Of a DNA stretch of 64,000 bases, positions 3,134 to 30,826 are shown piece by piece. The stretch lies in contig DAOMZR010000001.1 of NCBI GenBank assembly GCA_035400585.1, forward strand, positions 370,643 to 434,642. Reading direction: 5' to 3'. Below the pieces are notes generated by a model that did no database searches, had not been told where the DNA came from, and worked only from the letters and a program-made list of their open reading frames with translations. Both the position numbers and the translations under genes were made by a program. The first letter of the stretch is position 1, and the number at the start of each line of letters is the position of its first letter. The stretch is from a bacterium. GTDB taxonomy: Bacteria; Patescibacteriota; Patescibacteriia; Patescibacteriales; UBA12465.

Positions 3134-3682
3134 ATGGAAGCGAAAATTCTGGACTACATCTACGATGAAAACAAAGAATTGATTGGAGTAAATCTTGATC
3201 AGATCGGTGAACTAAAAATTAGTCACTGGGAAGAAAAGGTTATCGGCTCGTTTGCCAGGGTGGAATTTAAAATTCCAGCTAAAGACGGCGTATTCACCAA
3301 ATTTATTCCTGAAAGACTTCGTCTTTATAAAAATGGTGAAATACAAAGCATGCTCCCCTATTGGCGACACGGGGTTTTCGTTAAATCAACAAAAGGAGAA
3401 GATGTTCTGGTGACCAGATGCTATTATCATGTTGATTCTAAAAAAACAGAAAACAGCCTGCCCTTCGGAAAAACAGTTATTGGAACTGTTGAAATTCGAA
3501 AAGCGACCAACGCCAAAACCGGAGAAGAAAAAATAATTTTAAATTTTATTTACTCTGGTGAAACCAAAAAAATTGAGAAAAAAAGGAAAATTGTTATTGA
3601 CAGCGGCTCCGACAAGGAACCAATATTCAAAACAAAAATTCCCGGAAGTGGAGGAAAAATGATTAAAGTATTCAACGTTTAA
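3134..3682 (+). CDS. hypothetical protein
   Basis: This is a 182-aa ORF with an ATG start, a consensus promoter and a structured leader. No motif is recognised. Confidence 0.7.
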   Translation: MEAKILDYIYDENKELIGVNLDQIGELKISHWEEKVIGSFARVEFKIPAKDGVFTKFIPERLRLYKNGEIQSMLPYWRHGVFVKSTKGEDVLVTRCYYHVDSKKTENSLPFGKTVIGTVEIRKATNAKTGEEKIILNFIYSGETKKIEKKRKIVIDSGSDKEPIFKTKIPGSGGKMIKVFNV

Positions 3683-3754: not shown

Positions 3755-5149
3755 TTAATAACCAATATTTTTAATAAAATAATCCTTTAAATCACTGATT
3801 TTAATTCTTTCCTGTTCCATTGAATCTCGATGTCTTAAGGTAACATCATTATTTTCCAGACTATCAAAATCGACTGTTAAACAATAAGGCGTTCCTATTT
3901 CATCTTGACGGCGATAACGCTTACCGATATTACCATTGTCGTCAAATTCACACTTCCAATTAATTTTTAATACATCAAAAACTTCTTTGGCTTTAGAAAC
4001 TAATTCTGGTTTATTTTTTAACAAAGGAAAAACAGCAATTTTAACTGGGGCTAATTTAGAAGAAATTTTTAAAACAATTCTAGAATTATCTCCCTCACCC
4101 TCTTCACAATAAGCATCAGATAAAATAGCCAAAAAAGTTCTACCAACACCAGCCGACGTTTCAATTATATGAGGAGTAAAACGAGAGTTGTCGCTTGGAT
4201 CTAAATAAGTTAGATCTTTACCAGAGTGTTTGCTGTGTTGAGTCAAATCATAATCTCCTCGAGCATGTATTCCTTCTAGCTCTTTAAAACCAAAAGGAAA
4301 GTTATACTCAATATCATAAGCTTCTTTAGCATAAAAAACCAAATTTTCATGTTTGTGCCATTTTAAATTATTCTCCTTAATCCCTAAACTCAAATAAAAA
4401 TTCCAACGAACATCCTTCCATTCATTATAATATTTCTGATAATCTTCTGGCCTAATAAAATATTGCATTTCCATTTGCTCAAACTCTCTAGTTCTAAAAA
4501 TAAACTGTCTGGCAGTTATCTCATTTCTAAAAGCCTTACCAATTTGAGCAACTCCAAAAGGAACTTTAACTCTAGTTGAGTCTAAAACATTTTTATAATT
4601 AACATAAATTCCCTGGCAAGTTTCTCCTCTTAAATAAGTTGGTTCCTTAGACCAATCTCCGGTAAAATTTCCCAGATTAGATTGAACTAATAAATTAAAT
4701 TTTTTGCCTGGCGTAAAATCTTTAGCTCCGCAATTCGGACATTTTATTTTATCTTTATTTTGGCTAAAAATTTCATTAATTTCCTCTTCGCTCATTTTTT
4801 CATCAGCAAAAATTCCAGCCTCTTCCAATAAAGAATCTAGTCTTAGACGAGAATGACACTTGCGACATTCAGTTAAGGGATCAGAAAAACCTTTGACATG
4901 ACCAGAGGCTTCCCATATTTTGGGATTCATAAAAATAGCTGAATCGAGACCAACAACATCGTTGCGATACTGAGTCATAGCTTTCCACCAAGCGTTTTTG
5001 ATATTATTAGCCAATTCTACTCCGTAAGGACCGTAATCGTAAACGGCCGGAAAACCATTATAAATTTCCGAGGATTGAAAAACAAAACCCCGTCTTTTAC
5101 ACAAAGAAACTATTTTTTCCATTTTACTTTCTTGGTTGCCACTGCTCAT
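3755..5149 (-). CDS. glyQS: glycine--tRNA ligase (class II, single-chain GlyQS type)
   Basis: This 464-aa product begins MEKIVSLCKRRGFVFQSSEIYNG, which is typical of dimeric GlyRS. Class II core motifs are present. The start may instead be the internal MEKIV. Confidence 0.9.
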   Translation of the reverse strand: MSSGNQESKMEKIVSLCKRRGFVFQSSEIYNGFPAVYDYGPYGVELANNIKNAWWKAMTQYRNDVVGLDSAIFMNPKIWEASGHVKGFSDPLTECRKCHSRLRLDSLLEEAGIFADEKMSEEEINEIFSQNKDKIKCPNCGAKDFTPGKKFNLLVQSNLGNFTGDWSKEPTYLRGETCQGIYVNYKNVLDSTRVKVPFGVAQIGKAFRNEITARQFIFRTREFEQMEMQYFIRPEDYQKYYNEWKDVRWNFYLSLGIKENNLKWHKHENLVFYAKEAYDIEYNFPFGFKELEGIHARGDYDLTQHSKHSGKDLTYLDPSDNSRFTPHIIETSAGVGRTFLAILSDAYCEEGEGDNSRIVLKISSKLAPVKIAVFPLLKNKPELVSKAKEVFDVLKINWKCEFDDNGNIGKRYRRQDEIGTPYCLTVDFDSLENNDVTLRHRDSMEQERIKISDLKDYFIKNIGY

Positions 5150-22825: not shown

Positions 22826-24040
22826 TTATTTATTTTTTAAATAATTAATTTTAAAAGAATCAACAAAGGATTCTACCAAAAAAGGTATGTCGGAAATTAT
22901 TATTGATTCATCGTTATTAAAAAAACCAGCTATGCTCCAATTATTAGTACCCGTAATTAAAATTTTATCATCAATTATCATGGTGTGCTGATGCAAAAAA
23001 GAATTTAAAATATTTTGTCCCAATTCTTGCATTTCATATTGTCTTTTTTCATCCGTTATTACCTCAACATTATCATAAACCCCGACTTTAAAAATACTTT
23101 TAAAAACTGATCCGTTTTGATTAAGATTTGACTCATCAGTAATCATTGTTATTTTTTTGTCTTTTGGTATTAATAAAATTTCTTTAGCCAAACCTCTATC
23201 AGTCCAAAGCCAAATCATTATTCTAATTTTTTCTTGAGTGTTTTTTGCTAATTCAATCATTCTATTTTTAGCATTATTATATTTATCTCCTGGTGAAAAC
23301 CAAATTTCTATAAAGCCGTTTTTATACTTAATACGCGCAGCAAATGGGTTAACATTTTCAATTGTTTTTCTAGCTCCGTGAATGCCAGAATTTATTCTGT
23401 CAAATTCTTCGCCAAAAATTCTAACAAAATTTTCATCATTAGTTTTAATTAAAAAACTAGGATCATATTTTTCTTGCAAATGGGTAAAATTATAGGAACC
23501 AAAAAACAATGTTCGACTTTCAAGTTGACGATCAATAATAATAAACTTATGGTGCATTAAATATGATCTATTATTTTTCCAAAAAGAATAGGTTATATCT
23601 TTCCTGGTAATAAAATTTTCTATATCAGCAAAAAAAACATCATGAATATCCTTTCCCTTGCTGCAAACCAAAACAACTATTTCAACTCCTCTATCAGCCG
23701 CTTTTTTCAGGGCTTCCTTAATATTAGAATCGTTCATCGCGTAAACGGCTATTTCAATAGTATTAGTGGCGGAATTAATTGATTTTATAACTTCATCAGA
23801 AAAAATATTTTCACCCAGCTTGTCATTAAAATAAACATCAGCCTTAAAATCATAATCAACAGTCAACTCTTCTCTTGGGGCTATCGGAGTTATTTCTTTT
23901 AAATTTTTATTGTCAGAAAAAAAATAAAACAAAGAAAGAAAAAACAAAAAAAGAATTAAGAACAAACTAAAAAAAATTATAATTAAATTCCTTGTATTAT
24001 TTTTATTTTTTTTCTCTAATTTCTTTTGATTGGATTTCAT
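22826..24040 (-). CDS. membrane-anchored PLD-family protein, third gene of the RT cassette
   Basis: This 404-aa product has a basic N-terminus followed by one TM segment (LIIIFFSLFLILFLFFLSLFYFF). The first motif, HHKFIIID...GSYN (about 23531-23554), is canonical HxK(x)4D. The second, HQHTMIIDDKILITGTNN (about 22970-22993), has the lysine position replaced. Its ATG at 24040 overlaps the upstream gene by 38 nt. Confidence 0.8.
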   Translation of the reverse strand: MKSNQKKLEKKNKNNTRNLIIIFFSLFLILFLFFLSLFYFFSDNKNLKEITPIAPREELTVDYDFKADVYFNDKLGENIFSDEVIKSINSATNTIEIAVYAMNDSNIKEALKKAADRGVEIVVLVCSKGKDIHDVFFADIENFITRKDITYSFWKNNRSYLMHHKFIIIDRQLESRTLFFGSYNFTHLQEKYDPSFLIKTNDENFVRIFGEEFDRINSGIHGARKTIENVNPFAARIKYKNGFIEIWFSPGDKYNNAKNRMIELAKNTQEKIRIMIWLWTDRGLAKEILLIPKDKKITMITDESNLNQNGSVFKSIFKVGVYDNVEVITDEKRQYEMQELGQNILNSFLHQHTMIIDDKILITGTNNWSIAGFFNNDESIIISDIPFLVESFVDSFKINYLKNK

Positions 24041-25706
24041 ATTTTTTATAATAACTTAAAATTTGATTATCGTTTTTAGAAAAAACAATTATGCTTGTTT
24101 TATTTAATTCATCGCTGATTAAGCGCAACATTTTATTAATGGGTTCATAGTTTAGATCCAGCCATAAATTATCAATAACTATAACATCCGGCTTAACAAT
24201 TAAACAATGAGCACAATGAGCCGCAAAAGATTTTACAAAATTATTAAAAACAAATTCTAATTTTATATTATAGTTAGCATCCTGGCTTAAATTTTGAGCT
24301 ATCAGATCAAATTTTTGAATCTTTTTTATATTTTTTTCAACTTCCTCCATCGAAATCATCTCCTTGTCTTTTCCCGAAACAAATTCCAATAAAGTTCGCA
24401 CAGATTTAAATAGTGGATCAAAATAATAGGGACGAGGCCGACAACCAGACCAAAAAGAATAATTGAATTTCTGACCATCAATTTTTACTTTCCAGCTCAG
24501 AGGATTGCAAACCTTTAAACCAGAAAAAGCTAAGGCTAAAGATGTTTTTCCGGATAAATTTTCACCTGTAAATAAATATCTATTTCCGCTTTTAAAAACA
24601 AAAGACAAGCGACGATAGTACGCACCTTCTAAAAACAATTTCGTCTTTCTATTGTGAAAGCTTATTTCGTTTCTAACTATTGGCGCCATTTTTGTTAACG
24701 AAATTCTTTTTGGCAAAACTGATAGCACTATTCCTAGTTTAGCTGGGTAAGTATAAAGACCAATAGTTGAAGCCTCATAAAGAGCTCGGGAAATATAGAT
24801 AATAAAAAATATAAGAAATAGATAGTTGAAATTATGTTTAGCAAAATAAGAATTCAAAAATCCTTCATTAAAATTTACAAAAAAATAAATAATTATTACT
24901 AATAAAAAAATAAACTTTCCAGCCAAACGAAACCACAAATCGCGACGAATTCTGAAATAAGAATCAAAATCTACCAAGCGATCAAATTTTTTAATAAAAT
25001 AACCCTCTTGAAAAAATCTTTTTAAAAAAGATTTATCAGAAAAATTGAAACTGATATGTTTTAATATTTGAGAATAAAAAGTAACCTCTCTGGATATATA
25101 ATATCTGGAAATAAAATAAGAAAACAAAATTATAATCAAAGAAAGTACCACAAAAAATAAAGAAGACCACAATAAACTTAAATCAATCAAATGGGCAATA
25201 AAAACAAAACAGGCAAAATAAAAAAACCAACGGATAACTGCAAAAAAAACTTTAGTAACAAAAGAGGAAAGCAGGGGCAAATGATAAGATATTTTGGCTA
25301 TTAAATTAGATTGAGACTCTCCGTTTATAGAAGCCTCCCCTCTGTTTAAATAAAAAGAAACTATTCTTTTTCTAACCTCGTTGCTAAGATAAACTGATAA
25401 AGTTTTTTCCTTTTTTATTGAAAAATATGAAAACAATAGAAAAAGAACGGAAAAAACAATAAACAACAACAAGAGGCTATTATTCGTTGTTTCAAAATTT
25501 AATTTATTGCGACTAATTAATAGCAACAACAACTCTACAATTGTCTGACAAACAATTAGGGTTAAAGCCAAAAAAAATAAAACCCTATTTTTTTTATAAA
25601 ATTTTTTAAAAAAAGAAATGTAAAAACCCAAACCTCTTTCTTGATCAATCGGCAAGGCATTGTTTCTTATTTTTTTTAATTCTGAAATATTTTTATTTTC
25701 GATCAT
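24003..25706 (-). CDS. ABC half-transporter-like protein (multi-TM N-domain plus degenerate nucleotide-binding domain), second gene of the RT cassette
   Basis: In this 567-aa product, roughly the first 330 aa hold about 6 hydrophobic helices. The C-terminal domain has Walker A GENLSGKT (24543-24566). The signature position reads LSQDA instead of LSGGQ. The Walker B position reads VIVIDN (24168-24185), with Asn where the catalytic Glu normally sits. The gene overlaps the RT stop by 14 nt. Confidence 0.75.
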   Translation of the reverse strand: MIENKNISELKKIRNNALPIDQERGLGFYISFFKKFYKKNRVLFFLALTLIVCQTIVELLLLLISRNKLNFETTNNSLLLLFIVFSVLFLLFSYFSIKKEKTLSVYLSNEVRKRIVSFYLNRGEASINGESQSNLIAKISYHLPLLSSFVTKVFFAVIRWFFYFACFVFIAHLIDLSLLWSSLFFVVLSLIIILFSYFISRYYISREVTFYSQILKHISFNFSDKSFLKRFFQEGYFIKKFDRLVDFDSYFRIRRDLWFRLAGKFIFLLVIIIYFFVNFNEGFLNSYFAKHNFNYLFLIFFIIYISRALYEASTIGLYTYPAKLGIVLSVLPKRISLTKMAPIVRNEISFHNRKTKLFLEGAYYRRLSFVFKSGNRYLFTGENLSGKTSLALAFSGLKVCNPLSWKVKIDGQKFNYSFWSGCRPRPYYFDPLFKSVRTLLEFVSGKDKEMISMEEVEKNIKKIQKFDLIAQNLSQDANYNIKLEFVFNNFVKSFAAHCAHCLIVKPDVIVIDNLWLDLNYEPINKMLRLISDELNKTSIIVFSKNDNQILSYYKKYEIQSKEIREKK

Positions 25707-26904
25707 AATGAAATTTTAAGTAAAATTTATACAAGGAAATTATTTTGATCTGGCTTTCGGATAATTTATCAACAAGCAATCTTCTATTTCTGGAATTATA
25801 TTTGCCAAACAAAAATTCAGTTAGAACTTTAAAAAACGATTCGGACAAAAGTTTTATTTGATCAGAGTCATTTATTTGTGGTTTGCTTTTTATAATACCT
25901 TTAAAAACATTATTAAAATTTTTTTGAGGATTCTTCATTATTTTTCTCAAAATAGTCATCTTATAATTTTGACTATAATTTTTGTAAATCAAAATCGATT
26001 GCCAACTTTTTATTATTTTTTTGACAAAATTATCTGGCAAGGATATTTTACCCGCCAAAAAATTATAACCTAAATAAGAAAATTTTTCTTTAGCTTGACC
26101 GAAAAATATTTTATCTAAATTTATTTTGAGTTTCAAATTCGAAACATCATTTAAAAATTCTTCTTTATTTTTTTCTAATTTTTCCTTGTCTGGATCAAGC
26201 ATTATCAAATCATCACCTACTCGTAAATAAAATTGGGCACGAGAAGAAAATTTCTTATCGATATCGTTTAAATAAAAATTGGTTAAAAGACCAAAAATCG
26301 GACAACCAATGACTAGCCCCCTATTTGGTTTTAAAAATTCACCTTGATAGTAAAAACTATTATTAACAAAAACAGATAATAATTTTAAAACGGAATCATC
26401 TTTAATAAATTCTGACAACTTCTCCATCATTAATGTCCGATCGATTTCACCAGAAAAATTACTTAAATCAGCCGTAAAGACATAATCGGTATTGAAAAAT
26501 TTACGATATCTTTTGGCCATTAAATAAGCTGCGTTATAAGGTGATTTTCCTGGACGATAAGAAAAAAGGCGAGACGAAAACTCTTTTTCAAATTCGCCCA
26601 AAAGAACTCGATAAATTGCCTGGGATTTAACTCTCTCCTTAATATTGTAAATAAATATCTCTCTATTTTTTTCTGGATTATGTTTTTTAGGAATATAAAT
26701 ATTAAGGGCCGGATCAATTTCTTTAAATTCTCTCATTTCTTTTTTAATTTGCCTAATTAAATTAAAAACAAACAAATTAAAAAAATTTAAATTTAAACCG
26801 TCCAAGCCCCTGTACCTATTTTCTTTGTTTTCCAAATGAAAATAATCAAAAACCTCTTGATAGGCTTCCCTAATATTCTTAGAAGATGTTATTTTTTTAA
26901 ACAT
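25693..26904 (-). CDS. reverse transcriptase (unclassified; not obviously retron, DGR or group II)
   Basis: RT motifs occur in the expected order: IYIPKKHNPEKNREIFIYNIKERVKSQAIYRVL (motif 1), SYRPGKSPYNAA (2), YVFTADLSNFSGEID (3/A), GLVIGCPIFGLLTNFYLNDID (4/B), YLRVGDDLIML (5/C; VGDD is encoded at 26220-26209), LKLKINLDK (6) and FSYLGYNF (7). A C-terminal region of about 110 aa follows. The track start at 26913 is a TTG codon, so I use the ATG at 26904. Confidence 0.85.
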   Translation of the reverse strand: MFKKITSSKNIREAYQEVFDYFHLENKENRYRGLDGLNLNFFNLFVFNLIRQIKKEMREFKEIDPALNIYIPKKHNPEKNREIFIYNIKERVKSQAIYRVLLGEFEKEFSSRLFSYRPGKSPYNAAYLMAKRYRKFFNTDYVFTADLSNFSGEIDRTLMMEKLSEFIKDDSVLKLLSVFVNNSFYYQGEFLKPNRGLVIGCPIFGLLTNFYLNDIDKKFSSRAQFYLRVGDDLIMLDPDKEKLEKNKEEFLNDVSNLKLKINLDKIFFGQAKEKFSYLGYNFLAGKISLPDNFVKKIIKSWQSILIYKNYSQNYKMTILRKIMKNPQKNFNNVFKGIIKSKPQINDSDQIKLLSESFFKVLTEFLFGKYNSRNRRLLVDKLSESQIKIISLYKFYLKFHYDRK

Positions 26905-26916
26905 TTTAAACAAAAA

Positions 26917-27306
26917 ACTGCTCTTAAGATTTTTAACAGTTATATCTGTTAAAAATTAATAATATAATATTCATTGAGAAGTGGCGGATGAGACCCAGTG
27001 ATGGCAGGGTAGCGGTAAAAACCAGCTCTAAATTATCTTGGCATTATCAAGAATGGAAAAAAACAGGCTGATTTTAATGCCCTTTTTAAAAAAGGTTTTA
27101 AGAGCAGTCAACAAATGTAAAGGTAGCAGAAAAAATCGTTTCAGGATCTTCGACGGATTACCATCAAAGATTATTTAAGTATTTCATTGAGAAGTAGTGT
27201 AAAAGCGAAATTTAAGGAGTGATCCTTAATTACCGATAAAATTTTTGTATCTCTTATCGATTTTGATACCCATAACAATGGTTTTGAAACGATTTTAAAC
27301 TGCTAC
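26917..27306 (-). ncRNA. candidate RT-associated structured noncoding RNA / long structured leader
   Basis: No ORF of 60 aa or more lies in 26905-27391. G+C is locally elevated (28/50 in 26981-27030 by my count). Two long-range helices and several local hairpins are present. A minus-strand promoter sits immediately upstream of the outer helix. See the findings for coordinates. Confidence 0.55.
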
Positions 27307-27310
27307 TTAA

Positions 27311-27338
27311 ATTATATACCAAATGAACAAAAAGTCAA
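27311..27338 (-). promoter_or_regulatory. promoter TTGACT-16-TATAAT for the ncRNA/RT cassette
   Basis: On the minus strand, TTGACT lies at 27338-27333, the spacer is 16 nt, and TATAAT lies at 27316-27311. The predicted TSS is about 27304-27306. Confidence 0.6.
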
Positions 27339-27391
27339 AAAAATAATAATTATTTTAACTAAATTTTATAACACAAAATTATAATGGATAT

Positions 27392-28258
27392 ATGAAAAAA
27401 AATAAAAAAATAATTTTCTGGCTATTTTTTTTGTTAATAATTTTTATTGTTTTTTTGAATTATTATTTAAAAATTAGAAATAATAAAAATTTAAATATTT
27501 TCTTTCTGGATTCAGGCCAGGCTGATACAATATTAATAAAAACACCAGAAGAACAAAATATTATTATTGATTTAGGCAGTAAAGATGGACTTAAAGGTGT
27601 TGGTCAGCAAATTTTTTGGTGGGACAGAAAAATAGACATATTAATAATAACCCATCCTCACGATGATCATATCTTGGCCATTCCTCAATTAATAGATAAA
27701 TATAAAATAAATAAAATAATATTTACTGGGATAATATACGATTCACCAATCTATGAAGAAATAATTAAAAAAGCGCAAGATAAAAAAATAAAATTATTAA
27801 TTCCGCAAATCAATCAAAAAATATTATTGGGAAAGAGTTGCGAGTTGGATTTTTTATATCCATTAGAAAGTTTAAAAGATAAAAAAATAGAAAATATTAA
27901 CAATTCTTCCATTGTTAATAGATTGAAATATAAAAACAATTATTTTTTATTCATGGGTGATTCTGAAATTGACATTGAAGAAAAATTATTAGAAAAAAAT
28001 TATGAATTAAAAAGTGATGTTTTAAAAGTTAGCCACCATGGCTCCATTAGTTCTAGTCATCAAGAATTTATAAAAAAAATAAACCCGAAAATTTCAATCA
28101 TCATGGTTGGTCAAAATAATAAATTCAACCATCCAAGTTTAAGAACATTAAATAAATTACAAAAAATCGGCTCTTTGATTTTTAGAACCGATTTAAACGG
28201 AGATATAAATATAACAAGTGATGGTCAATTGATAAAATATAAACTATCCAGCGAATAA
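27392..28258 (+). CDS. ComEC/Rec2-type MBL-fold domain protein with N-terminal TM anchor
   Basis: This is a 288-aa product. The motifs FLDSGQADTILI, ITHPHDDH, LKVSHHGS and FNHPS...RTDLNGDI match the C-terminal metallo-beta-lactamase domain of ComEC. Confidence 0.8.
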   Translation: MKKNKKIIFWLFFLLIIFIVFLNYYLKIRNNKNLNIFFLDSGQADTILIKTPEEQNIIIDLGSKDGLKGVGQQIFWWDRKIDILIITHPHDDHILAIPQLIDKYKINKIIFTGIIYDSPIYEEIIKKAQDKKIKLLIPQINQKILLGKSCELDFLYPLESLKDKKIENINNSSIVNRLKYKNNYFLFMGDSEIDIEEKLLEKNYELKSDVLKVSHHGSISSSHQEFIKKINPKISIIMVGQNNKFNHPSLRTLNKLQKIGSLIFRTDLNGDINITSDGQLIKYKLSSE

Positions 28259-29512
28259 TTTATTGGCTAATAAATTTTTAGCTGTTTCCATACTAATCAT
28301 TCCTCTGTTAGTAAGATCTTTAATGCTTCTTTCAAAGCTAATCATACCTTCGCTAGAATGAGTTTCAATAACACTTCTTATTTGGGCTATTTTTTGTTCC
28401 CTAATAAGATTGGAAACAGCTGAATTATTCAACAAGACTTCTCTCACCGCTACTCGACCGCCATTAACACCAGGAACGAGTATTTGAGAGATTACTGCTG
28501 ATAAAATCAAGGATAACTGTGATTTTATTTGATTTTGCTGATGAGGTGGAAAAATATCAATAATACGATCAATAGTTTGAGAAGCATTGCAAGTATGCAA
28601 AGTAGCTAAAACTAAATGTCCAGTTTCAGCCAAGGTTATAGCCGTAGAAATAGTTTCTAAATCGCGCATTTCCCCAACCATAATAACATTAGGATCTTGT
28701 CTTAAAACATGTCTTAGGCCACTAGCAAAATCGGGCATATCGGTTCCTAATTGTCTTTGGCTAATTATGCTTTTTTTAGGTTTAAATATAAATTCGATTG
28801 GATCTTCAAAGGTGACAATATTACAACTACGAAAATTATTTATATGATCGATCATGGCCGCCAAAGAAGTTGATTTTCCAGAACCAGTTGGACCAGTTAT
28901 CAAAATTAATCCCTGAGTTAATCCTAGGAGACCATAAACTTGTTTGGGCATATCCAACATTTCCATCGATGGCATAACCTCATCAATAATTCTAGCTGTC
29001 ATTTTGATATTGCCCTTCTCAAAAGATAAGTTAGATCTAAATCTATAATTTTCAAATTGATAAGAAAAATCTAAATCCTTTTTTCTATTTAAGCGATCAA
29101 TTTGTTTTTTACTTAAAATATGTTTAATCGCCTTAATCATTTCTTTGTTAGTAACCAAGCTTAAGTCATAAGGCTCTAGAGACGGAGTAAAAGATGAAAT
29201 ATTTTTGGAAATTTCGCTACTAATTAATTCATCATCTTCTGACAAAACAAACCTCTCAACCGAATTTCCCGTATCTTCATAAGACCCTAAAATATTTTTT
29301 TGGTTAGAATTGTTTTCTGAGAGTAAATCTTGTTCTTTGCCAATGTTATTATCAAAAGAATTATCAATCATGTCCAAGTCTGGCATTGATTGAAATTTGT
29401 CGATTGAAATTAAATTACCATCTATTCTTAGTATTGGCCTTAAACCAGAAACTAAGTGAATATCAGAGGCTTTTTGTTCGACGGCAATCTTAAAAATTTG
29501 ATTAATATCCAT
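28244..29512 (-). CDS. pilT: type IV pilus retraction ATPase PilT with N-domain insertion
   Basis: The motifs ASDIHL, GPTGSGKSTSLAAMI, FEDPIEF, VIMVGEMRD and TGHLVLATLHT are present. The track start is a TTG codon, so I use the ATG at 29512 (MDINQIF). A low-complexity insertion of about 70 aa follows IDGNLISID. Confidence 0.88.
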   Translation of the reverse strand: MDINQIFKIAVEQKASDIHLVSGLRPILRIDGNLISIDKFQSMPDLDMIDNSFDNNIGKEQDLLSENNSNQKNILGSYEDTGNSVERFVLSEDDELISSEISKNISSFTPSLEPYDLSLVTNKEMIKAIKHILSKKQIDRLNRKKDLDFSYQFENYRFRSNLSFEKGNIKMTARIIDEVMPSMEMLDMPKQVYGLLGLTQGLILITGPTGSGKSTSLAAMIDHINNFRSCNIVTFEDPIEFIFKPKKSIISQRQLGTDMPDFASGLRHVLRQDPNVIMVGEMRDLETISTAITLAETGHLVLATLHTCNASQTIDRIIDIFPPHQQNQIKSQLSLILSAVISQILVPGVNGGRVAVREVLLNNSAVSNLIREQKIAQIRSVIETHSSEGMISFERSIKDLTNRGMISMETAKNLLANKLFAG

Positions 29513-29520
29513 ATAATTTA

Positions 29521-30213
29521 TTACCAATTTTTTAACTTTAAACCTTTAATAGCTGCATCAACTTGAGCTTCCTGTTTGGAGCCACCAATTCCAACTGAAA
29601 CTAGCTCATCGTCTAAAAACAAACCGACTGTAAATTTTTTGTCATGATCCGGACCTTCTTCTTTTAAAACTTTATAAACTGGTGTTATGCCGGTTTTTTC
29701 TTGAGATGATTCTTGAAATTTCGACTTAGGATCTAAATAAGATTTATTTTCTATAATATCATTTAAGTTAACAATTATTTTTTCAAGAATAAATTTTTTA
29801 GCTGGTTCTATTCCCTGATCAAGATAAATGGCACCGATCAAAGCTTCAATAGCATTGGCCAATATATATTGACGAGCCTTAGAATTTTTATCTTTAGCCT
29901 CACCTCTGGAAAGTAAAATATGTCCTTCAATATCCAAACCATCAGCCACTTGATAAAGCATTTTAGAATTAACTAAACTAGCTCGCCAATTAGTTAGATC
30001 TCCTTCTGGGTTGTTAGGAAAATTAACAAACAAATACTCAGTAATAACAATTTCCAAAACAGCATCTCCCAAAAATTCCAAACGCTCATTATGACCAAAC
30101 GGAAAATTATGATTTTCGTTTAAATAAGATCTGTGGGTTAAAGCTTGTTGTAAAAGATCTTGATTTTTAAAATAAAAACCAATCTTTTTTTCTAAATTCT
30201 TAAAACTAGACAT
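29521..30213 (-). CDS. rnc: ribonuclease III
   Basis: The ERLEFLGDAVL signature and a C-terminal dsRBD are present. I use the ATG at 30213. Confidence 0.9.
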   Translation of the reverse strand: MSSFKNLEKKIGFYFKNQDLLQQALTHRSYLNENHNFPFGHNERLEFLGDAVLEIVITEYLFVNFPNNPEGDLTNWRASLVNSKMLYQVADGLDIEGHILLSRGEAKDKNSKARQYILANAIEALIGAIYLDQGIEPAKKFILEKIIVNLNDIIENKSYLDPKSKFQESSQEKTGITPVYKVLKEEGPDHDKKFTVGLFLDDELVSVGIGGSKQEAQVDAAIKGLKLKNW

Positions 30214-30310
30214 AAACAAATAAAATAGACTTGTTGCTTAATAATTTTTCTAAATTTAAAAAATTATCAAGTAAAAGGTCTAATTAAATTATTTTTTATT
30301 ACTTTATTTT

Positions 30311-30826
30311 TTATTCTTTTTCTTCAACTATTTCTTCTTTTTCTTTGTCCTTTTTTTCCTGATCTTTTGTTTTCTTTCTGTCCTCTGATATTTTTTCTCT
30401 TTTATTTTTTTCATCCTCGGGCATATCGGCATAAACTGAGCCTAGCACTCCATTAATAAATTTTCCAGAAGCTTCTCCGCCGAAATTTTTGGCTACCTCG
30501 ATTGCTTCATTTATGGCCACTTTTGGTGGAACCTCAGTAGCAACAGCTAATTCATAAATTCCTAAACGCAAAACATTGCGATCAACTGCATTTATTTGAT
30601 CAATCGGCCATTCAGTTGCGTATTTTTTTATATATCCATCTATAAGTTCAATGTTTTTAATAACCCCCTGAGCCAAACTAATAGAAAATCCCTGATCGTC
30701 AAAATCAGGAGCAAAATCAGAAAAATCTCGATTAATTATTTCTGCAATATCAAAAGTTTTACCATTAAAATCCCATTCAAATAAAGCTTGCATAGCTATT
30801 GTTCGCGATAAATGTCTATTAGCCAT
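30311..30826 (-). CDS. nusB: transcription antitermination factor NusB with K/E-rich C-terminal tail
   Basis: The sequence [18 protein letters not shown]...[26 protein letters not shown] is typical of NusB. A charged tail of about 35 aa follows. Confidence 0.88.

Follow-up and report, generated by a model that had tools for sequence, protein, structure and literature searches.

What is the structured, non-coding DNA that lies directly before a reverse transcriptase (RT) gene in a member of the Patescibacteriota, and does it belong to the enzyme? This question is raised by a 64-kb stretch of DNA (assembly GCA_035400585.1, contig DAOMZR010000001.1, positions 370,643 to 434,642), which was analysed as a whole and is called the window, and in which the RNA region and the RT are both read on the minus strand. 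A sequence-only reading had proposed that two long helices jointly organise one RNA upstream of the RT, with a geometry like that of the a1/a2 repeats of retrons. Our analysis divides the region differently: 26916-27306(-) contains two units, A and B, which belong to a single RNA family and stand in tandem, and each of the two helices is the closing helix, P1, of a separate unit. We favour, with moderate confidence and by analogy with known systems, the explanation that this RNA serves as the cognate scaffold and template RNA of the group-II-intron-like RT encoded downstream.

The helices themselves were found as described. In helix 1 (7 + 12 bp around a small internal loop), all pairs are present on the minus strand where they had been placed, and helix 2 (11 bp, 27108-27098/26927-26917) was confirmed and can be extended by one G.U pair (27109/26916). 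The end of helix 2 at 12 nt before the RT ATG (26904), the G+C content of 28/50 in 26981-27030 and the small local hairpins that had been listed are also present in the sequence. RNA folding, shuffled controls, covariance analysis and an Rfam scan had been named as ways to examine these claims. Using RNAfold, both helices were obtained in the minimum free energy and centroid structures of 26900-27320(-), and this region folded at -107.4 kcal/mol compared with -67.7 +/- 5.4 kcal/mol for 100 dinucleotide shuffles (z -7.4; 0/100 as stable). When the two domains were folded separately, the helix-1 domain had a z of -7.9 and the helix-2 domain a z of -5.0.

To see the region in its relatives, 60 loci with RT relatives at 35-70% identity were collected (denoted by L numbers where they must be told apart), nearly all of them from metagenomes of Patescibacteria, or the Candidate Phyla Radiation (CPR). 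In almost every locus, a stretch free of open reading frames (ORFs) lies directly before the RT and is framed by an 11-28-bp helix, the sequence of which is completely different from clade to clade. The closest relatives carry a single framed element whose interior resembles the helix-1 domain of the window by alignment, and in relatives whose RTs are 64-70% identical only one unit is present, in either a short or a long form. A covariance model, R1, was built from 13 relatives with the window left out, and it matched unit A at 27132-27296(-) with 56.9 bits (E about 3e-10) and unit B at 26914-27111(-) with 51.7 bits (E about 5e-9), both E-values being rough. Since a model made without the window matches each domain separately, the window holds two tandem units, which are composed as follows.

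27123..27306, minus strand: non-coding RNA (ncRNA) unit A, 184 nt, short form, by model R1, fold z -7.9
27306-27300/27129-27123, minus strand: unit A, outer part of P1
27296-27285/27143-27132, minus strand: unit A, inner part of P1
27284-27282, minus strand: unit A, junction J1/2, AAA
27281-27278/27273-27270, minus strand: unit A, P2
27269-27265 with 27251-27247, minus strand: unit A, pseudoknot GUAUC/GAUAC, compact H-type
27261-27254/27239-27232, minus strand: unit A, P4
27229-27223/27218-27212, minus strand: unit A, P6
27195-27183, minus strand: unit A, 13-mer ACUUCUCAAUGAA in junction J6/7
27171-27161/27156-27146, minus strand: unit A, P7
26916..27109, minus strand: ncRNA unit B, 194 nt, canonical form with P5, by model R1, fold z -5.0
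27109-27098/26927-26916, minus strand: unit B, P1
27097-27096, minus strand: unit B, junction J1/2, AA
27095-27090/27086-27081, minus strand: unit B, P2
27080-27075 with 27046-27041, minus strand: unit B, pseudoknot between GCAUUA and the P5 loop UAAUGC
27074-27065/27029-27019, minus strand: unit B, P4
27051-27048/27040-27037, minus strand: unit B, P5
27016-26983, minus strand: unit B, C-rich variable segment at the P6 position
26982-26970, minus strand: unit B, 13-mer ACUUCUCAAUGAA in junction J6/7
26955-26946/26939-26930, minus strand: unit B, P7

Units A and B are otherwise diverged, yet the J6/7 13-mer ACUUCUCAAUGAA is identical in both, as found by blastn-short. Tandem units also occur in two distantly related loci with one RT each (L027, 2908-3486; L029, 1656-2230), in which the scaffold is near-identical between the units and the differences fall mainly in P6 and the outer P1, with compensatory changes.

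The family shares a fixed architecture. Read in the 5'-to-3' direction, a unit starts with the 5' strand of P1 (12-28 bp across the family), which is followed by an AAA(A)C junction, P2, a strand of 5-7 nt with the consensus (G/A)(U/C)AU(U/C)A, and P4. After P4, P5 usually follows, and its loop UAAU(A/G)(C/U) pairs with the strand of 5-7 nt to form a pseudoknot. Then come a variable P6, the conserved single strand CUC-RUUGRAUUUAAUU (J6/7), the P7 hairpin, which is stacked against P1, and the P1 3' strand. The RNAs are 165-300 nt long and are under strong purifying selection for their own fold; of their unpaired positions, only about 12 reach at least 80% conservation. Using this architecture, several smaller pairings proposed earlier can be reassigned. 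The GTATC/GATAC and CGATAA/TTATCG stems, which had been called competing, are the conserved H-type pseudoknot of unit A, and the GGCATTA/TAATGCC pairing is the same pseudoknot in unit B, where P5 is present. The family model gives no support to the AGC-GGT/ACC-GCT hairpin at 27011-27027, since this stretch forms the 3' strand of P4.

In about 45 loci, R1 has a significant match immediately before the RT, and across these the geometry is kept with abundant compensatory substitutions. RNAalifold on 18 sequences gave compensatory changes in 27/35 pairs. In the 13 seed sequences, 90.7% of the cells pair, compared with 38-50% when the partners are slid against each other, and 33/56 pairs are changed on both sides. 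In the 34-row alignment with 33 homologous RNAs, 89.3% pair versus 36-47% for slid partners, 49/55 pairs are compensatory, and the doubly changed cells number 459 versus 77-118. The support is spread unevenly over the fold: P1 covaries in 12/13 pairs, and P6 aligns poorly, with 64% paired. The pseudoknot was absent from the model, and its support is therefore independent of the fit of the alignment; it is paired in 97.3% of cells versus 18-58% for slid partners, and 5/6 of its pairs are compensatory (for example, AU 16 and GC 14 at one pair, UA 22 and CG 8 at another). An all-against-all complementarity scan for further tertiary pairs returned more than 100 pairs, which were spurious because the alignment has two deep clades, and it was discarded; only the slid-partner controls are trustworthy for claims of pairing.

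These data also decide the strand. The plus strand of the region folds well too (z -6.0, on energy alone), since perfect inverted repeats must fold almost equally well on either strand, and this speaks for chance palindromes in AT-rich DNA, or for a plus-strand or DNA element. We give such explanations hardly any credence, as no shuffle was as stable, the independently built model matches both units, and compensatory changes were found in 49 of the 55 pairs. In addition, R1 scored 120-158 bits on the sense strand and 16-24 bits on the antisense strand, and G.U pairs outnumber A.C mismatches by 163 to 58, both of which favour the RT strand over the plus strand. The RNA strand is the RT strand, and the earlier claim of a structured RNA on this strand, framed by long closing helices, is well supported.

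No known RNA family was matched. Rfam 15 gave only sub-threshold chance matches in 24000-30000 of the window at E up to 10, only ribosomal RNA (rRNA) in 20 related loci at the gathering score, and nothing meaningful for the isolated RNAs of L013 and L024 at E up to 10.

The downstream enzyme is encoded as follows.

25693..26913, minus strand: RT, 406 aa (start TTG 26913) or 403 aa (start ATG 26904), group-II-intron-like

In Pfam, the RT was matched by RVT_1, and it scores 124 bits against the NCBIfam group II RT/maturase model, which has a cut-off of 300. In PADLOC, it was found by the generic RT model, with partial matches to UG26 (118 bits, profile positions 42-289 of 398), UG4 (93), UG17 (92), Drt9 (70), UG27 (56) and RT-Cas1, and no retron model was among its PADLOC or NCBIfam matches. 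A profile search of the PDB with the RT family placed the group II RT GsI-IIC first (6.5e-33), then RT-Cas1, and, lower down, DRT2 and DRT9 (about 1e-13), G2L4 (1e-11) and retron Ec86 (1.6e-6). An AlphaFold2 model (pLDDT 91.9) was compared by Foldseek, and GsI-IIC was again the best match (TM 0.76, full length), followed by DRT9, G2L4 and the RT of a diversity-generating retroelement (DGR), with the first retron chain at rank 50. The catalytic residues D149, D234 and D235 are invariant in the family, and the consensus of motif 4, GLVQGVPL, is group-II-like. Residues 231-235 (window 26209-26223) read RVGDD in place of YxDD and are invariant across 34 family members; an aliphatic first residue of the catalytic motif recalls motif C of telomerase. 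From these residues and the predicted fold, the RT looks catalytically competent. Full-length relatives of about 400 aa form about 50 clusters at 50% identity among 1.84 billion representative proteins, almost entirely from Patescibacteria among the sources that name an organism, and beyond these clusters there are only RT-domain matches in much longer proteins with dropping scores. In three representative proteins of 834-858 aa (P0217, P0219 and P0228), the RT profile was matched in two stretches, and these may be doubled or fused forms.

As class C group II RTs are closest to this enzyme in both sequence and fold, the RNA could be what is left of the ribozyme domains upstream of an intron-encoded protein, that is, a decayed group II intron. 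We regard this as highly improbable. No Rfam group II domain was found in the window at E up to 10, nor in 20 loci at the gathering score, and the RT stop overlaps the next gene, so that there is no non-coding DNA after the RT and no space for domains V/VI. Moreover, the RNA is only 165-300 nt long with a fold under its own purifying selection, and the group II score of the RT is 124 against a cut-off of 300.

A genuine retron, in which an msr-msd RNA framed by a1/a2 is primed from a 2'-OH and yields multicopy single-stranded DNA, is a further candidate. The end-closing geometry of a1/a2 named by the sequence-only reading is indeed seen, with closing inverted repeats directly upstream of the RT (12-19 bp in the two units of the window) and accessory genes after it, and some sources label relatives of the RT 'retron-type reverse transcriptase'. 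Nevertheless, a retron is very unlikely here. The clade of the RT (GsI-IIC at 6.5e-33 versus Ec86 at 1.6e-6) speaks against it, and both the profile search and Foldseek (rank 50) place retron RTs far below group II RTs. The branching G is also missing: the junction after the P1 5' strand is A (82%), A (97%), A (97%) and C, and there is no conserved unpaired G near P1. Finally, the partner proteins match no PADLOC retron effector.

The following promoter was found just before unit A.

27311..27338, minus strand: sigma-70-like promoter, TTGACT at 27338-27333, a 16-nt spacer and TATAAT at 27316-27311

This promoter, which had already been noted, is the best sigma-70-like match in 25500-27600 (11/12 positions), in a region where the number of promoter-like sites is no higher than in shuffles. 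The transcription start predicted from it, about 27305-27303, falls on the first P1 pairs of unit A, in agreement with the earlier placement, and equally strong promoters lie just 5' of the RNA in L044, L047 and L039. Thus the description of closing helices that begin just past a strong promoter and stop just before the RT start codon holds. At the 3' side, of the 29 loci with a placeable RT start, 22 have the end of the outer P1 strand at -3 to +9 nt relative to the AUG, which puts the initiation region inside the helix. Since in most loci the P1 3' strand extends to the start codon, the RNA, when folded, probably restrains translation of the RT as well. In L047, a terminator-like hairpin with a U-run (3443-3468) lies between the RNA and the RT start, and similar hairpins in L039, L044 and L050 were seen by eye only and were not called by the scan. 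In the clade of L047, the terminator-like hairpin shows compensatory changes between loci.

These features are what a purely cis-acting leader would show, namely a structured 5' untranslated region that controls translation of, or read-through into, the RT operon, is never reverse transcribed, and may be a binding site of the RT itself, in the way that DIVa is bound by the RTs of group II introns. The P1 3' strand overlaps the expression platform (12 nt before the ATG in the window), and the hairpin and U-run of L047, together with those recognised by eye in the other three loci, resemble an alternative expression platform. Tandem arrangement is known for riboswitches, and group-II-like RTs control their own expression by binding to the RNA at the start codon of their gene, so the tandem units and the type of RT are both compatible with such a leader. 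We consider it unlikely, for the following reasons. First, a P1 of 12-28 uninterrupted pairs is far too stable for a switch tuned by a ligand or a protein, and the combination expected of a riboswitch, a short and marginally stable P1 with a highly conserved ligand core, was not found in these RNAs, which have about 12 conserved unpaired positions. Second, seven helices, a pseudoknot and a hypervariable cassette between invariant flanks are unexpected of a simple operator. Third, the RNA stays with the RT and not with the transporter-like genes. Fourth, wherever a bacterial RT that has a conserved structured RNA next to it has been characterised, this RNA has been its template.

The cassette in question is P6, which is hypervariable between invariant flanks. 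L001 and L002, for example, have almost identical RNA scaffolds despite a divergence of about 11% in the RT and the genes around it, and nearly all of their RNA differences lie within one stretch of about 40 nt in P6. In L044, L047, L050 and L039, invariant flanks surround P6 inserts of 12, 16, 26 and more than 110 nt. We return to the explanation that the RNA is the scaffold and template of its RT. Under this proposal, the RT would bind the conserved scaffold (P1, P2, the pseudoknot, P4, J6/7 and P7) and copy part of the RNA into complementary DNA (cDNA), the likeliest template being the P6 cassette, entered from the conserved J6/7 side. The cDNA product or the ribonucleoprotein would then act with two membrane proteins, C1 and C2, that are encoded after the RT. 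Templating is suggested here by analogy with retrons, DRT2, DRT9, DRT10 and UG27.

A different kind of template, the template repeat (TR) of a DGR, would also account for a non-coding element before an RT. In many DGRs, the TR precedes the RT, and DGR RTs carry the motif 4 signature I/LGxxxSQ. The position of the element and the commonness of DGRs, which make up about 80% of the known RTs in CPR bacteria (PMC8632793), would fit this reading, but next to no weight can be placed on it. A TR implies a diverged second copy, and none is present in the 64-kb window, where blastn-short of 26900-27330 returned chance 11-14-mers, internal repeats and the 13-mer shared by the units. The window has one RT copy and no Avd-like small gene, motif 4 is GLVQGVPL and not the DGR signature, the DGR RT ranks below group II RTs, and the conserved operon partners are unlike DGR targets.

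Several points weigh against a scaffold and template role. The pair counts given above, except those of the pseudoknot, come from alignments fitted to the model. The argument for templating of cDNA is one of analogy only, and the RT is nearest to the RTs of group II introns and CRISPR systems rather than to a clade for which the use of an adjacent ncRNA is proven; G2L RTs, moreover, are described as being without an associated RNA structure (PMC8632793). The variability of P6 is equally expected from a tolerant peripheral loop, and a P1 over the start codon fits a purely cis-regulatory role equally well. The template signatures of the individual known systems were also not seen. There is no conserved branching G beside P1. 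Alignment repeats of the A-B-A' type, as in telomerase or DRT10, are not enriched in J6/7 (mean 4.1 versus 3.6 in shuffles) and were rejected, and a UCAUU-(G)-UCAUU pattern in two clades is within chance expectation. A hidden ORF like that of DRT2 is ruled out by stops in all six frames of every RNA (mean z -0.64), and in shuffles the longest open stretch tends, if anything, to be longer. The consensus loops showed no conserved U-run on inspection by eye, for which no dedicated poly-U scan was made. The failure of these signatures lowers the membership of this RNA in each of the named families, not the partnership of RNA and RT in general.

The genomic setting ties the RNA to the RT, and the RT shares a conserved operon with the two partners, which are encoded as follows.

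24003..25706, minus strand: C1, 567 aa, multi-pass membrane domain and degenerate ABC-type nucleotide-binding domain
22826..24040, minus strand: C2, 404 aa, N-terminal membrane anchor and two Nuc/NucT-like phospholipase D (PLD) domains

The C1 gene overlaps the RT stop. C1 keeps the Walker A SGKT and the Walker B Asp, has Asn at the catalytic Glu and is without LSGGQ; it matches Pfam ABC_tran weakly, and its homologs match PF00664 and PF00005. It lies beside the RT in 51/61 loci, and all of its 56 detectable homologs are from the RT operon. In C2, which is present in 45/61 loci, the first HKD motif is canonical and the second has His for Lys, and the protein matches Pfam PLDc_2 (6e-30), NCBIfam NucT, and NucT, Zucchini and Nuc in the PDB. 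Wherever the contig is long enough, the RT is followed by overlapping C1 and C2. The RNA always precedes the RT immediately and in the same orientation, and this is so even in L052 and L057, where C1 and C2 are divergent from the RT. One Falkowbacteria genome carries two complete RNA-RT-C1-C2 systems 110 kb apart on a 568-kb contig, and the two RNAs (L062, 2823-2990; L066, about 2330-2495) have different P1 and pseudoknot sequences, which suggests that each RT has its own cognate RNA.

From these components, a hitherto unrecognised four-part retroelement-derived system that is widespread in Patescibacteria can be proposed, though only tentatively: a P1-closed, pseudoknotted RNA of one or two units with its own promoter, a group-II-like RT that would bind this RNA and copy P6 into cDNA, and coupling to the envelope through C1 and the PLD nuclease C2, which appears to be outward-facing. 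If true, the RT system may take part in DNA export or uptake or in abortive infection at the level of the envelope, and it would be a type of system covered by none of the retron, DRT, DGR and group II classifications.

The flanking genes vary by lineage and are of housekeeping or pilus/competence type. In the window, the system lies between the rRNA genes and a group of genes for NusB, RNase III, a PilT-like ATPase and a ComEC-like metallo-beta-lactamase, and across the loci the further neighbours include pilins, AsnRS and surface proteins. Genes of pilus/competence type adjoin the system in the window (27392-30826) and in L007, L010, L011, L013, L025 and L055. The link of the system to its pilus/competence, RNase III and NusB neighbours may be coincidence or functional. 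The rRNA genes of the window are ordered 23S (22439-19427), 5S (19374-19260) and 16S (19064-17504) along the direction of transcription on the minus strand, not 16S-23S-5S, and in L001 a 23S gene likewise follows the PLD gene. A phage origin was considered and rejected, as only 1 RT relative was found among 2.9 million viral contigs. That contig (L061, IMG/VR) is a candidate viral sequence and carries the RNA just upstream of the RT (3768-3986, 40 bits). A defence-island context was rejected as well, with neighbours of housekeeping or pilus type; in PADLOC, C1 had no match, and the only matches of C2, DrmC-like PLD ones, were weak.

An RT with an adjacent structured RNA is a known kind of arrangement, and what is new here is the RNA fold, the RT lineage, the partner proteins and the host group. 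The fold has strong covariation support and is absent from Rfam, and the RT is from the group-II-like branch, whose members are usually said to have lost their RNA. No known RT system has been seen with these two dedicated membrane partners, and no description of a CPR RT with ABC and PLD partners was found in the literature covered, to which subscription papers largely do not belong. The hosts are CPR bacteria, whose RT content was previously thought to be mostly DGRs. Retrons, DRT2, DRT9, DRT10 and UG27 each revealed an unexpected route of making DNA and became tools for genome engineering. Since the present system is compact (about 4 kb), and its RNA has clear boundaries and a natural insertion site in P6, the hypotheses proposed here can be tested directly.

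Compared with known systems, the locus combines features of several. Retrons, which are cited as a precedent for RTs with an ncRNA (PMC8632793), share with it a structured RNA upstream of the RT on the same strand, ends joined by a long helix, an own promoter, accessory genes after the RT and an internal element of variable sequence. In contrast to retrons, the RT here is group-II-like, the RNA has no conserved branching G, has a conserved pseudoknot and comes as tandem units in some loci, and the ABC-like membrane ATPase and membrane PLD protein are not known retron effectors. The core of telomerase RNA offers a resemblance only, in its closing helix, its pseudoknot and a conserved single strand after a stable stem (P6 followed by J6/7), whereas the alignment or template repeats are not enriched here, the order of the elements differs and the RT is not closest to the TERT-like class-2 RTs. 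Class C group II RTs such as GsI-IIC are the best match in sequence and fold over the full length, and no intron ribozyme is present, as G2L RTs are defined (PMC8632793); the differences from G2L are the dedicated covarying RNA, the catalytic motif RVGDD and the small size of the family.

With the class-2 UG and DRT systems, the picture is again mixed. The PADLOC matches to them are partial and score no better than the group II model (124 bits). No A-B-A' enrichment, hidden ORF or poly-U template (the last judged by eye only) was found here, the partner proteins differ, and no known family shares the RNA fold. The present systems reside on CPR chromosomes, in housekeeping neighbourhoods rather than in prophages or defence islands. 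On the other hand, class-2 UG RTs are reported to polymerise ncRNA-templated products (PMC13174585), and the RNAs of DRT9 and DRT10 have a large central stem with stem-loops and a template after a stable stem (PMC12632851). A closing stem with stem-loops beside a stand-alone RT of about 400-500 aa is common to these systems and to ours (PMC12632851), and DRT10 works with a membrane protein (SLATT) where the membrane partners here are C1 and C2. In UG27, arrays of pseudoknotted units of about 150 nt carry, between conserved motifs, a diverse central hairpin that is the template of short cDNAs (bioRxiv 10.64898/2026.09.22.753630), and the RNA described here resembles them in its pseudoknot, its tandem units and its diverse element between conserved motifs.

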